From NCBI GenBank assembly GCA_016208235.1, contig JACQYN010000003.1, forward strand, positions 1-49,097: a stretch of DNA of 49,097 nt. The letters run 5' to 3'. Source of the stretch: Deltaproteobacteria bacterium. Its GTDB lineage: Bacteria > Desulfobacterota > Desulfobaccia > Desulfobaccales > 0-14-0-80-60-11. The number at the start of each line of letters is the position of its first letter. The first letter of the stretch is position 1. Both the position numbers and the translations under genes were made by a program. Positions 13,981-43,595 of the stretch are shown in pieces. The notes below the pieces were generated by a model, which made no database searches, was not told where the DNA came from, and saw nothing but the letters and a program-made list of their open reading frames with translations.

Positions 13981-14334
13981 ATGGAACGCGTAGACCAATT
14001 ATCCCGGGAACAGATGCGGGCGGATCTTCCCGCCTTCCGCCCGGGAGACACCGTGGAAGTGCACGTGCGCATTGTGGAAGGGGACAAAGAACGGATTCAG
14101 GTCTTTAAAGGAGTGGTTATCCGCAAACGAGGCGCGCTCACCGGCTCCACCTTCACCGTACGCAAAGTCTCTTACGGCGTGGGCGTGGAGCGTATCTTTC
14201 CCCTACACTCCCCGAATATCGAGCAGGTGGTGGTTCTCACCCGGGGGGATGTCAATCGCAGCCGTCTTTACTACCTGCGCCAGCGGGTGGGCAAAGCGGC
14301 CCGGATCAAAGAAAAGCGGACCCCCCAGGCATGA
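13981..14334 (+). CDS. rplS: 50S ribosomal protein L19
   Basis: [30 protein letters not shown]. Confidence 0.98.
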
Positions 14335-14966
14335 AAAGGCCCCGGGCCGGCAAGCAGGTCTTTGCTGACCCGGAGGCTTATTGGCGTTTACAGGGGATTC
14401 CCCTAATCGCCGGGGTGGATGAAGTGGGCCGGGGGCCCCTGGCCGGGCCAGTAGTGGCCGCGGCCGTAATCCTGCCGCCGGAGGCCCGGTTTCCTGGGCT
14501 CCGGGACTCCAAGCTCCTTACCCCTGAAGCCAGGACCGCTCTGGACGCCGAAATCCGGAGCCGGGCCCTGGCTTTTGCCGTTCGCGAACTGGGTCCCCGC
14601 CACATCGAGCGTCTGGGCATCCTGGCCGCGTCCCTGAAAGCCATGGCCCAGGCGGTCCAGGCCCTCTCCCTGCTCCCCGAAATGGTGCTGGTGGACGGCC
14701 CTCACCCCCTGCCCCTGGCCTTTCCCCAACAGCCGGTGGTCAAGGGGGACGACCTCTGCCCCTCCATCTCCGCGGCCGCGGTCCTGGCCAAGGTGTACCG
14801 GGACCGGCTGATGACTTCCTTCCACCGTCAATATCCCCAATACAATTTCCCGCGCCACAAAGGCTACGCTACGCCTGAGCACCTGGAAGCCCTGCGCTGT
14901 TGGGGGCCCTGTCCCATACACCGCCGCACCTTCAGCGGGGTTAAGGAATGGCTAGAGGAGAGATAA
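14331..14966 (+). CDS. rnhB: Ribonuclease HII
   Basis: [34 protein letters not shown]. Confidence 0.97.
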
Positions 14967-14975
14967 TGATCTCAG

Positions 14976-15759
14976 TTTGCAGCATTTCTAATACCAGGAT
15001 GCGATTAAACAGGTGTTTTCCCTTGTAGGGGCGGACCCATGTGTCCGCCCCGGAGGGTCGCACACGCGGATGCGCCCTGGAGGGGGCACACATGGGTGCC
15101 CCCCTACTTCCATGATCGTATTTATTTTTAAGGACTGATTAAAATGCCTGTTTGGCCATGGAGACGTAAGTCCCCTCGTTTAGAAGAATACGACTATTCC
15201 AGTGAAGGTGCTTATTTTGTTACGGTTTGCATCCAGAAACGTGAATGTTTATTAGGGAGGGTGGCTGAAGGGATTCTTCAGTCAAATGATGCCGGGAAAA
15301 TGGTGGAAAGGTGGTGGCAGAAACTGGAGAATAAATTCCCTTCAATCAAAATAGACTCTTTTTATGTGGTTATGCCCAATCATTTTCACGGGATTGTGTT
15401 TTTGCGAGCGGCCGGGGGCGCACACATGGGTGCGCCCCTACAAAAGATAGTGCAGTGGTTCAAGACCATGAGCACTAACGAGTATATTCATGGAGTTAAG
15501 GAATACGGTTGGCCGCCGTTTAAAGAAAAATTGTGGCAACGCAGTTTCTATGATCATGTTATACGTAATGAAGAATCTCTGAGCCGCATTCGCGAGTATA
15601 TAGCCACCAATCCCCTGCGTTGGGATCTGGACCGGGAAAATCTTCAAGCCAGAGGGAAAGACGATTTTGACGGCTGGCTTGATACTTTTAAAGCCAGGCC
15701 GCAATCATCCCCCTGTAGGGGTGCACCCAGTAGGGGCGGACCCATGTGTCCGCCCTCAG
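14976..15759 (+). mobile_element. RAYT-REP cassette inserted in the yraN 5' end between CTCAG direct repeats
   Basis: CTCAG at 14971-14975 and 15755-15759; removing the cassette gives ATG ATC TCA GAT GAT AGG (MISDDRRQLG). Confidence 0.65.
15025..15107. repeat. GTAG REP cluster (RAYT1 type: gtaggggcggacccatgtgtccgccc)
   Basis: Inverted doublet upstream of the RAYT; copies at 15414, 15715, 19796, 26415 and 27688. Confidence 0.88.
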
Positions 15760-16109
15760 ATGATAGGCGACAGTTAGGCGACGCGGGCGAAGCCCTGGCC
15801 GCCGCGGCCCTGAAGAAACAGGGCTATAAGATCCTGGAGCGCAATTACGTCACTCCCCTGGGGGAGATTGACCTCATCGCCCGGCACGGCCGCGCGCTGG
15901 TCTTCATTGAAGTGAAAACCAGGCGCAGCCTCCGGTTCGGGGAGCCCCAGGACGCGGTGACCCCGGCCAAACAGGCCCGAATACAAAAACTGGCGGATTA
16001 TTATTTGCAGCGCAAACGCGTGGGGGAGGTGGAAGTGCGGTTTGACGTGGTGGGGATTACCTTTTCTGATAATAGGTCTAGCGTTGAAATCATTCAGAAT
16101 GCTTTTTAG
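15144..16109 (+). CDS. REP-associated tyrosine transposase (Y1 HUH) fused in frame to a YraN-family nuclease
   Basis: RRKSPRL-YDYS-GAYFVT, VMPNHFH, WQRSFYDHVIR, YIATNP; then from about 15756 GEALAA, GEIDLIA, VFIEVKTR, RFDVV with no stop in between. Confidence 0.88.
   Translation: MPVWPWRRKSPRLEEYDYSSEGAYFVTVCIQKRECLLGRVAEGILQSNDAGKMVERWWQKLENKFPSIKIDSFYVVMPNHFHGIVFLRAAGGAHMGAPLQKIVQWFKTMSTNEYIHGVKEYGWPPFKEKLWQRSFYDHVIRNEESLSRIREYIATNPLRWDLDRENLQARGKDDFDGWLDTFKARPQSSPCRGAPSRGGPMCPPSDDRRQLGDAGEALAAAALKKQGYKILERNYVTPLGEIDLIARHGRALVFIEVKTRRSLRFGEPQDAVTPAKQARIQKLADYYLQRKRVGEVEVRFDVVGITFSDNRSSVEIIQNAF
15756..16109 (+). CDS. yraN: YraN (UPF0102) nuclease domain, C-terminal part of the fusion ORF
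   Basis: GE..A..L...GYKILERN, GEIDLIA, FIEVKTR; canonical position between rnhB and rsmI. Confidence 0.92.
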   Translation, partial: SDDRRQLGDAGEALAAAALKKQGYKILERNYVTPLGEIDLIARHGRALVFIEVKTRRSLRFGEPQDAVTPAKQARIQKLADYYLQRKRVGEVEVRFDVVGITFSDNRSSVEIIQNAF

Positions 16110-16148
16110 TTAATCTGTAGGGCGGCGCTGTCCGCCACTATTTGCCAT

Positions 16149-16979
16149 ATGCTTTACATCGTCGCCACTCCCATCGGCAATCTGGAAGACATTACCCTCC
16201 GGGCCCTCCGGGTCCTCAAGGAAGTGGACCTGATTGCCGCGGAGGACACCCGCCACACCCGCAAGCTCCTCACTCACTATGGTATTTCCACGTCCCTCAT
16301 CAGCTACCACGCCCATAACCAGAAGACCCGGGGCCCGGAGCTGATCCAGCGCTTGCAAAACGGCCAGAATATCGCCCTGGTAAGCGACGCGGGCACCCCG
16401 GGATTCTCCGACCCCGGAGCCGACCTGGTGGCTTTGGCTTGGGACGCGGGCGTCAAAGTGGAAGCCGTGCCCGGCCCCGCCGCCGGGGTCGCAGCCCTGT
16501 CCATGTCCGGGTTTAAGGGCGACGTCACCTTTGTGGGCTTCCTCCCCCACCGGGAGGGCAAGCGCCGGGAATTGCTGGGCCGGTTGGCGAATGAGCCCCG
16601 GGCGGTTATAATATATGAGTCTCCTCGACGCCTCCTTACTACCCTGGAGGAAATCGCGGCGGTGATGGGCAACCGCCAGGTGCTGGTGGTCCGGGAGCTT
16701 ACAAAAAAATTTGAGGAGGCCTGGCGGGGGCCGGTTAAGGAAGTGGCGGCCGAACTCGCGGGCCAAGAAATCAAAGGGGAATGCGCCCTGGTCCTCTCGT
16801 GCCCTGAAGGAGAGCCGGCCCCGGAAGTGGACCTCACCGGGCACCTGATGAAAAGGGCCCGGGAAAGCGGCCTCCAGGGACGGCAGCTCACCGACCTGGT
16901 GGCCGGAGAACTGAAAATGCCCCGGCGCCCGGTGTACCAGGCTTATCTGGTTTTGAAGGCCCGGGGTCGCGTTAAATAG
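16149..16979 (+). CDS. rsmI: 16S rRNA C1402 2'-O-methyltransferase
   Basis: LYIVATPIGNLEDIT, AEDTR, SDAGTP, YESPRR, RELTK. Confidence 0.97.
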   Translation: MLYIVATPIGNLEDITLRALRVLKEVDLIAAEDTRHTRKLLTHYGISTSLISYHAHNQKTRGPELIQRLQNGQNIALVSDAGTPGFSDPGADLVALAWDAGVKVEAVPGPAAGVAALSMSGFKGDVTFVGFLPHREGKRRELLGRLANEPRAVIIYESPRRLLTTLEEIAAVMGNRQVLVVRELTKKFEEAWRGPVKEVAAELAGQEIKGECALVLSCPEGEPAPEVDLTGHLMKRARESGLQGRQLTDLVAGELKMPRRPVYQAYLVLKARGRVK

Positions 16980-19795: not shown

Positions 19796-19880
19796 GTAGG
19801 GGCGGACCCATGTGTCCGCCCTTGGGTGGGCGGACCCATGCTTCCCCCCCGGGTGGGCGCACACATGGGTGCGCTTCTAC
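19796..19880. repeat. GTAG REP cluster (RAYT1 type)
   Basis: gtaggggcggacccatgtgtccgccc ... gggcgcacacatgggtgcgcttctac. Confidence 0.85.
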
Positions 19881-26414: not shown

Positions 26415-26470
26415 GTAGGGGCGCACCCGTGTGTGCACCCAGAGACCGGGCGGACACATGGGCCCGCCCA
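26415..26470. repeat. GTAG REP doublet (RAYT1 type)
   Basis: gtaggggcgcacccgtgtgtgcaccc...gggcggacacatgggcccgccc. Confidence 0.8.
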
Positions 26471-27687: not shown

Positions 27688-27856
27688 GTAGGGGCGCACC
27701 CATGTGTGCGCCCCTGGGGCCGGGCGGACCTCAGGGGCGGACACGTGGGTCCGCCCCATCCATTTGATACCAATTCGACATCAAACGGATATTTTCCGTA
27801 GGGGCGAACCTTGTGTTCGCCCAGCAGCATTTGGGGCGAACACAAGGTTCGCCCCT
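27688..27856. repeat. Adjacent RAYT1-type and RAYT2-type GTAG REP doublets
   Basis: 27688-27757 gtaggggcgcacccatgtgtgcgccc; 27798-27856 gtaggggcgaaccttgtgttcgccc. Confidence 0.85.
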
Positions 27857-42061: not shown

Positions 42062-42849
42062 TTAATTAATACGAATGCGGCCTTCATAGTCCCATTGATT
42101 GATTTTGGTTTTTCGGACTATATTTCTTATCAGCAGTTCATCTCGGCCAATTAGAAATCTTTCAGTATACTGGGCGACATTCAAGTTAATATTTCTAACT
42201 GTTTGTTTATTTGCTTTATGATGAATTAATAAATCTCCATGGTCCAACATGATTAGGCATGTGCTTTGAGAAATTGGAAAAACTTTGCGGACCCCTTTAA
42301 ATAATATTCCCATTCCATAAGGTCCTTTTGGAAAATCTTCAGAAGGAATTAAAACTATAGGATTATCGGTAGTTATAAAAGATGTGTCTTTAGGCGCATG
42401 TAGAAAAAGCCAATCCATTTGCTTAAAATGCTGAAATATATTAAAAGGACTCTTTCTTCATTGCAATACATCATCTTCAATGTATGCTTGATAATATTCT
42501 CATAAACATCATTAACTGATTTTTCAAAATCTGGGACGCGATTCATCATAAAGGCTATAAATAATGAAAGATTTTCTTTTTCTTCTGAAGTAATATTTTC
42601 CATATTAATAACTTTATTAAAAATATTCTTTGCGTTGCCCTCTATTTGTGATAACAACTGCTCAATATCAGTTACCTTATTCCCTCCACTATCTTCAAAA
42701 GTATAATAATTTGATTTCAAAGCGGTGTTTATGGGTGTTTGTATTCTGAACTCCTTTGATTTTCTGTCGAATATCCAAAAATTACCGTCTTTGCAGAAAT
42801 ATTGTAGATAAAATTGTGGCAAATAATGATGCCTTTTAGGTTTGGTCAC
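42062..42849 (-). pseudogene. DUF4238-like protein split into two frames, AT-rich
   Basis: KRHHYLPQFYL N-terminus (42373-42849) and FITTDNP...FPIS C part (42062-42418). Confidence 0.75.
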
Positions 42850-42935: not shown

Positions 42936-43595
42936 CTACACCTGCCAGGGCTCATCCGCCCTGATCTTTCCCGCCTCCCGGTTCTCCCGGTCCAGGGCCC
43001 AGTTTATGGGGTTGGCGGCAATGTATTCGGAGATGCGTTGCCATTCCTCCTCATCTCTGACGATACGTTCGTAATAGTTGCGCTGCCATAACTTCCCCGG
43101 GAAGGGCTGCCAGCCATATTCCCGAATGCCCCGGAGGTATTGGTGGGTCGTCATGGATTTAAACGCTTGGACGATACGCCCAATCGACCCTGCCGCGGTC
43201 CCCTGGGGACGAATTTTCCCGTAGGGGCGATCCTTGTGATCGCCCAGACGCCGGTCCCGGTCTAGGGATATAAAATTATCAGGAGGCGCACAAGAGGGGC
43301 GAATACAAGATTCGCCCCTACGGATGACCGCGATGGCATGGAAATGGTTGGGCATGAGAACCCTGGCGTCCAATTCCAGGACCGGAAACCGCCTGGGTAA
43401 TTCTTCCCAGGTCAGGAGAACCATTTCTCCAGAGGCATTGGGATGCATCGAGCCATCGACAATCTCGCCGAAAAGATATTCCCGATTCTGGGTGCAAACC
43501 GTGAGGAAATAGACCCCTTCCCGGGAATAATCCCAGCCGTGGAAACGCAGGGAGCGCCGCCGCTTTTGCGCCGATTTAATCATGCCGATGGCCAA
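42936..43595 (-). mobile_element. REP-associated tyrosine transposase (RAYT2) with an in-frame internal REP doublet
   Basis: RRSLR..WDYS..GVYFLT, LMPNHFH, FKSMTT, WQRNYYERIVR, YIAANP. Confidence 0.9.

Follow-up and report, generated by a model that had tools for sequence, protein, structure and literature searches.

The locus studied here raises the question of what a RAYT transposase is doing at the start of a bacterium's yraN gene. The continuation of the RAYT reading frame into yraN could be an assembly error, it could mark a cassette able to leave again, or it could belong to a lasting two-nuclease protein. The window, by which we mean the entire 49,097-nucleotide stretch of Desulfobaccales DNA that was analysed, holds the following features at this place.

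14331..14966, plus strand: rnhB (RNase HII), the upstream gene (Pfam RNase_HII); 3' end GAGGAG-AGA-TAA
14966..15028, plus strand: ATG-initiated 20-codon ORF over the rnhB stop, seen in the sequence; probably no gene
14971..14975, plus strand: left CTCAG, a chance repeat (sequence, shuffle test)
14989..15024, plus strand: degenerate left end (TAA, then TACC...) of a MITE with TIRs and TNA duplications; a likeness seen by eye and unscored
15025..15107, plus strand: left REP cluster, made of a GTAG-footed REP, a central hairpin and an inverted REP (sequence, folding)
15144..16109, plus strand: RAYT-YraN fusion ORF, 321 aa (translation, domain profiles)
15381..15389, plus strand: HUH motif H80-F-H82, both His kept in 119/120 of the best homologues
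15416..15443, minus strand: internal REP, in frame (GAHMGAPLQ) between the HUH and Tyr motifs, a hallmark of subclass 2.4
15597..15599, plus strand: predicted catalytic Tyr152 (YIATNP), in 120/120 of the best homologues
15715..15755, plus strand: partial and full REP encoding the linker RGAPSRGGPMCPP; includes ATG 15744 (M201)
15755..15759, plus strand: right CTCAG, formed by the REP foot (CC, then TC; Ser205) and the first base of YraN codon 3
15759..16109, plus strand: YraN domain; E216, D243, E256 and K258 in 120/120 of the best homologues, fold match to 3FOV
16149..16979, plus strand: downstream methyltransferase gene (Pfam TP_methylase, synteny), which we take to be rsmI

The fusion reading frame and its protein

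The gene order rnhB-yraN-rsmI is conserved across the genomes compared. The end of rnhB is as the sequence-only reading described it, with an SD-like GAGGAG (14955-60), a TAA stop codon (14964-66) and an ATG at 14966 that overlaps this stop. By reading, the 20-codon ORF that this ATG opens terminates at the TAG within the GTAG of the first REP. The left REP cluster folds into a single hairpin of -57.6 kcal/mol, and the sequence in front of it resembles the left end of the MITE type that holds most genomic copies of the fusion-locus REP. The terminal REP occupies the place of the RAYT stop codon and of the first two yraN codons.

The earlier proposal of a RAYT that lacks a stop and reads through a REP-encoded linker into YraN is borne out by the 321-aa ORF, which spans both domains and has counterparts in other genomes. 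It is the sole yraN match in this genome, which is 91% complete. The ORF is likely to be translated as one two-nuclease protein. Y1_Tnp is matched at residues 68-155 (Pfam score 25.9, cut-off 23), the RAYT profile NF047646 covers residues 19-161 with 63.3 bits, below its cut-off of 80, and a profile search places UPF0102 at residues 215-305. Two YraN profiles exceed their cut-offs, NF009154 with 133 bits (cut-off 109) and TIGR00252 with 82 (cut-off 69). The motifs NHFH (79-82) and YIATNP (152-157) have the form expected of the HUH and Tyr motifs of subclass 2.4. An AlphaFold2 model (mean pLDDT 71.5, pTM 0.49) predicts two domains, which match 4ER8 (E. coli TnpA-REP) and 3FOV (YraN), and residues 184-206, the linker, are modelled with pLDDT below 50.

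There are about 110 full-length fusion clusters (90% clustering, 60-85% identity) among the best 120 protein matches, and the search for proteins with both Y1_Tnp and UPF0102 that the earlier reading called for thus reveals a protein family. These 120 matches, a list ordered by similarity in which broken copies are under-represented, are 227-349 aa long, mostly span the whole query at 58-85% identity and are near full length in 111 cases (112 of 121 rows with the query counted). Those that are named come from Desulfobaccales or Deltaproteobacteria. All four motif strings are intact in 111/120 and Ser205 is present in 93/120, while the spacer between the catalytic Tyr and YraN measures 48 aa in 96 of 116 fusion homologues. 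Both halves occur together in 4 of the best 150 matches among 1.8 billion representatives; all four are members of the fusion family, and no RAYT-YraN fusion of independent origin is found among these 150. A search of viral contigs returned a single weak match of 20 residues, and one of the ESM Atlas returned one match at 0.89, a YraN cluster that we treat as a lead only.

One genome (G002) carries a larger insert between the HUH and Tyr motifs of its RAYT, and the conserved helix that precedes the linker is also found in stand-alone RAYTs. A C-terminal GKDxFDxWL helix is shared between the fused RAYT and stand-alone RAYTs from other clades of the order (L140, L142-L144, L146, L149, L151 and L152), and is absent from closer core relatives in other taxa. 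This distribution of the motif suggests that tails may have been swapped among RAYTs.

One alternative is that YraN is made chiefly from an ATG or GTG within the REP, with the long product as a tolerated by-product. The ATG at 15744 has AGGGG 7 nt upstream, and the database gene caller picked the 121-aa start (P0121). As had been proposed, this ATG can start YraN alone, and it does so in two genomes (G065 and G070) in which the RAYT is lost and YraN begins MCPPPTTRRQ. In two others (G066 and G068) the frame is shifted at the RAYT-yraN junction and the genes are still adjacent. However, the start lies in a GC hairpin, and position 201 is Met in 46 and Val in 35 of the 120 best homologues. One fused genome (G046) has no ATG, GTG or TTG across the 51 codons preceding L211, another (G047) has a TTG at L211 as its sole candidate start, and no stop has been regained in the approximately 110 clusters, which come from a biased, similarity-ranked list. 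Judged from these codons, separate translation of YraN is not a universal feature, and we consider this alternative very unlikely.

Empty alleles and the question of excision

The fusion is not an assembly artefact, because contigs from two groundwater sequencing runs (X1 and X3, from one study and possibly the source sample) span it and other genomes share it. These contigs cover positions 15025-16500 with one substitution and contain neither the stop nor the indel that an error between the domains would have introduced. An assembly error is therefore excluded.

The sequence-only reading further viewed the locus as the footprint of RAYT movement together with its REPs, bounded by CTCAG repeats and capable of clean excision as a switch for yraN. 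The repeats do exist, at 14971 and 15755, 784 nt apart, and an in-silico deletion between them yields an in-frame YraN of 119 aa that starts MISDDRRQ behind a good SD. Short rnhB-yraN gaps of 6-17 nt are also found in 11 of 71 loci, where such coupling is usual in a sister family and occurs in a few others, although none of these loci is in the genus of the window. However, the CTCAG pair is present in only 1 of 17 RAYT-yraN loci. When the 56-nt flank is shuffled 20,000 times, an in-frame 5-mer repeat arises by chance in 15% of cases, or in 6% when it must lie inside the first 13 nt of that flank. A second 5-mer, ATGAT, is likewise repeated at both junctions, and its deletion would by our reading be out of frame. 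A genome from another genus (G018) lacks CTCAG in an otherwise similar left flank. The repeat is no more than chance.

Empty alleles speak to the same point. There are eight genomes in the same genus, of which seven lack the RAYT, and their yraN genes begin MKDPRR(Q/L) in six cases and MKTASRQ in one, 97-898 nt past rnhB. The deletion product is different and one residue longer, and the start of yraN in these relatives does not correspond to the CTCAG junction, which was the comparison on which the earlier reading was said to depend. In the eight fused genomes of another genus (g3) the start of the RAYT and the stop of rnhB overlap, and there is therefore no left REP or flank from which excision could proceed. 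No excised joint is seen in the contigs of four runs, in which rare events would not be visible. We reject CTCAG as a target duplication or excision site, given its presence in 1/17 loci, the chance rate of 6-15% and the mismatched empty alleles. An excisable element resembling IS200/IS605 would be expected to have copies away from the locus, a shared repeat and corresponding empty alleles; among the rows listed there are no off-locus copies, no shared repeat is found and the empty alleles differ. These observations do not support a recent RAYT and REP insertion, and a CTCAG-bounded cassette whose excision returns yraN to a coupled state seems to us extremely improbable.

Distribution and ancestry of the fused allele

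There are 12 genomes with an intact fusion among the 83 surveyed from the order, in which 71 yraN loci were read, and they represent four genera (two genomes in g1, eight in g3, one in g11 and one in g14). The 12 loci outside the 71 gave no two-domain match in the 83-genome search. Four more genomes have a RAYT at the yraN locus with a broken frame. These are G066 and G068, described above, G051, in which several frameshifts are possibly assembly errors, and G072, which combines a decayed RAYT with a normal yraN start. Fused and plain alleles are also found in close relatives. In the sister pairs G045/G042 and G044/G048, which have opposite fusion states, the codons beside the junctions are 92-100% identical. 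The unfused sisters begin yraN with MKDPRRQ and an outgroup with the same gene order begins it with MPDPRQR; by comparison of these starts, MKDPRRQ is the ancestral form.

G002 retains, before its REP, the upstream element of unfused alleles from the same genus (36 nt, 89%), and G065 and G070 resemble, as judged by eye, chimeras in which a REP-derived start follows upstream DNA of the unfused type. The upstream elements are weaker as markers because they are partly dispersed repeats. Across the loci L002-L099 the rnhB-yraN spacer is a hotspot in which palindromic repeats that are unrelated to one another, and also entire genes, are found; in G004 and G005 it contains an ORF of about 200 codons.

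The RAYTs of yraN loci fall into a single clade (16 of 62 rows, support 100/99). When metagenome loci are added, this clade comprises 20 of 155 rows, and among the matches listed all 20 adjoin yraN and none lies elsewhere. Conversely, yraN is found beside none of the at least 154 RAYT loci listed outside the clade, which come from metagenomes and GTDB and include many short contigs. The median dN/dS of the RAYT is 0.12 (18 unsaturated pairs of 66), as opposed to 0.21-0.24 for yraN, rnhB and rsmI, and within genera YraN has the same value of 0.17 whether fused (29 pairs) or unfused (87 pairs). Both halves of the fusion are under purifying selection.

On a tree of rnhB and rsmI, RAYT presence changes 12 times, and at least 11 of these changes are forced by well-supported branches. 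A clade of fused yraN genes is rejected (AU p 2e-62), and YraN follows the host tree. RAYT distances nevertheless track host distances (Mantel rho 0.75), with three host clades unrejected by the RAYT data. The correlation between the RAYT and YraN halves is 0.69, whereas none of 200 random column partitions falls below 0.73, and the two halves are therefore mosaic; the RAYT's own halves are likewise mosaic. An AU test run on a subset picked for its discordance is given no weight here. The simplest reading is that the fusion arose once and that fused and plain alleles have since coexisted for a long time, with exchange among close relatives. The fusion is a long-standing allele, conserved yet optional in the family, and is likely swapped by recombination between relatives.

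A purely vertical history, in which the ancestor was fused and the RAYT was deleted independently many times, would also suit a RAYT tree that is broadly congruent with the host, and RAYT loss is common elsewhere (in the part of 10.1101/2021.07.10.451892 consulted). However, the ancestral MKDPRRQ start of the unfused sisters cannot arise by deletion, and the halves are mosaic. We regard this history as highly improbable.

Another possibility is repeated site-specific insertion, wherein the RAYT mobilizes its own cassette, bounded by REPs, in single-stranded form into the yraN start in many lineages. The sharp borders of the sister pairs, the unfused-type element before the REP of G002 and a junction that follows the REP foot at CT, the dinucleotide known for RAYT cleavage (PMC8266576, as far as the portion consulted extends), all agree with this scheme. 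So does the RAYT GC3 of 0.45-0.57, which despite the apparent age of the gene is far below that of its neighbours (0.69-0.88) and counts against allele exchange. Recent inter-species recombination might also leave a linked fused-type tract in the rnhB and yraN flanks, and its absence counts against exchange: of 24 window tests, three have nominal p<0.05 and none survives correction. Because of the missing tract and the low GC3 we retain repeated insertion as a rival. However, there is no clade member at other sites among the rows listed, the left ends vary (they are absent in g3) without a common target duplication, and the yraN start has been replaced rather than displaced. In addition, the synonymous divergence of the RAYT is equal to or greater than that of the flanking genes wherever it is measurable. 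On balance, repeated insertion appears quite unlikely.

Cognate REPs and a proposed role for the fusion

Each RAYT clade of the order is paired with its own REP type. The type at the fusion locus (15025-15107, 15416-15443 on the minus strand, and 15715-15755) flanks all 16 yraN-locus RAYTs, as opposed to 1 of 59 other RAYT loci. There are 135 copies of it in this genome, among them intergenic ones in the window at 19796-19880, ~26419-26469 and ~27688-27760. Its median density is 11 per Mb in the five carrier genera (51 genomes) and 0 in 14 other genomes of the family. Genomes with the RAYT have 18 copies per Mb and those without it 10, a comparison that includes related and hence non-independent genomes. 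Among sister comparisons, 7 of 11 show the higher density on the side of the RAYT carrier, which is not significant.

Most near-identical REP pairs in this genome lie within a TIR element of about 130 nt, and a different transposase may therefore have spread copies recently. This MITE occurs genome-wide (for example at C197:2050 and C242:25013), has the ends TACCAAGT..ACTTGGTA and is bounded by 3-nt TNA duplications in 46 of 50 copies. Its passenger is a REP pair in 44 copies and an unrelated palindrome in 6. No full-length IS or transposase sharing its ends is found in this draft genome. One copy (C270, ~15670-15865, minus strand) contains the REP, the 5' leader of the fused RAYT and, of its coding region, codons ~83-99 including the internal REP, and is an internally deleted derivative of the fusion locus.

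A second, stand-alone RAYT is located in the window at 42936-43595 (minus strand). It encodes 219 aa, is 40% identical, belongs to a separate clade and has a different REP type (GTAGGGGCGAA...) both flanking it and inside it. An AT-rich and apparently truncated DUF4238 gene (42373-42849, minus strand) adjoins it.

The fused RAYT closely resembles TnpA-Y1 subclass 2.4, which corresponds to RAYT group 4 (PMC6006769, Quentin et al. 2018). Members have NH[IFV]H, WQ and YIxNNP-like motifs, for which the fused RAYT has NHFH, WQ and YIATNP, and the likeness extends to long REPs with a GTAG foot, to a REP set in frame between the HUH and Tyr motifs and to a patchy distribution. An in-frame REP inside RAYTs of this subclass has already been described in that study. 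Unlike these RAYTs, the fused one has no stop and its REP encodes a linker to a host enzyme, and the terms 'fused', 'YraN' and 'UPF0102' are absent from the main text of PMC6006769. Similarly, the E. coli REPtron (TnpA-REP, 4ER8) and IS200/IS605 TnpA share the HUH/Y1 fold and a gene bracketed by cognate hairpins, but the present RAYT is fused to a core gene, is not multicopy, has no excision signature and lacks tnpB.

The YraN half is equally recognizable. YraN has been characterized as a relaxed endonuclease of single-stranded DNA; it interacts with ComM, nicking of the displaced strand is its proposed role, and its catalytic residues in Legionella pneumophila are D37 and E50 (Hardy et al., 10.1101/2024.02.06.579203, in the portion consulted). 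D243 and E256 of the fusion (PF02021) have the same 13-residue spacing. The gene is single-copy, and comM, dprA and comEC are present in this genome, all above their profile cut-offs. Unlike known YraN proteins, this one has an N-terminal HUH transposase of about 205 aa, linker included, in place of Met-Lys, and a natural YraN fusion is unmentioned in the main text of Hardy et al. Among the 12 fused genomes, comM is full-length in six and is cut, frameshifted or not found in the draft assemblies of the others. In the fused genome G047 (L238, G047:C2:133500-138500), the first ~63 codons of comM are missing from the 2 kb upstream, and the gene is possibly interrupted.

We favour, with a little better than even confidence, a bifunctional two-nuclease protein whose halves are independent and whose allele is exchanged by homologous recombination. 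One ancient in-frame fusion would have joined a RAYT to the sole yraN of its host. By analogy with characterized RAYTs, which cleave single-stranded REPs between C and T and perform strand transfer (PMC8266576, portion consulted), the RAYT half would nick single-stranded REP hairpins at this dinucleotide and maintain its cognate REP family. The YraN half would still work with ComM on transformation D-loops, and the two halves would act largely independently on a flexible tether. The RAYT would then persist by riding a selected host gene, and would be regained or lost via allele replacement, not by its own transposition.

Perhaps, instead, the halves are functionally coupled, and YraN, through its interaction with ComM, takes the RAYT along to the D-loops of transformation. 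There, single-stranded REP hairpins of the incoming strand or of the displaced one would be cut and joined, which would spread REPs or bias inheritance towards the fused allele. Both enzymes act on single-stranded DNA (according to the portions consulted of 10.1101/2024.02.06.579203 and PMC8266576), the spacer length is well conserved and fused and plain alleles have switched frequently. However, most genomes of the carrier genera retain the REP without the fusion, RAYT and yraN are adjacent but out of frame in G066 and G068, the conserved pre-linker helix is shared with stand-alone RAYTs and the 150 best representatives contain no independent fusion. Coupling of this kind is unlikely. It is equally unlikely that the RAYT hijacks natural transformation by being delivered through ComM and writing REPs into incoming DNA or favouring its own allele. 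If true, the RAYT would be a selfish element using transformation for homing, which would account for the 11 or more switches at a core locus and for their junction-sharp borders.

Inteins and IStrons are mobile elements that shelter in conserved genes. The fused RAYT is like them in persisting within a selected host gene and in the coexistence of occupied and empty alleles, but no splicing element is evident and the RAYT passenger would remain an attached domain. The switching between alleles, the estimates of selection and the specificity for the cognate REP come from the present analysis, whereas the internal REP was known; no description of a RAYT-YraN fusion was found in the main texts searched, which lie largely outside subscription journals.

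Among the open questions about RAYTs are why bacteria keep them, how they move between lineages and how they encounter single-stranded REPs in vivo (PMC6006769; 10.1101/2021.07.10.451892, each in the portion consulted). Here a RAYT would be covalently tied to a nuclease that processes transformation D-loops, and a REP hairpin has turned into a conserved protein linker and later into a new start codon. Because fused, split and RAYT-less alleles occur naturally in near-identical backgrounds, a link between RAYTs and transformation becomes directly testable.
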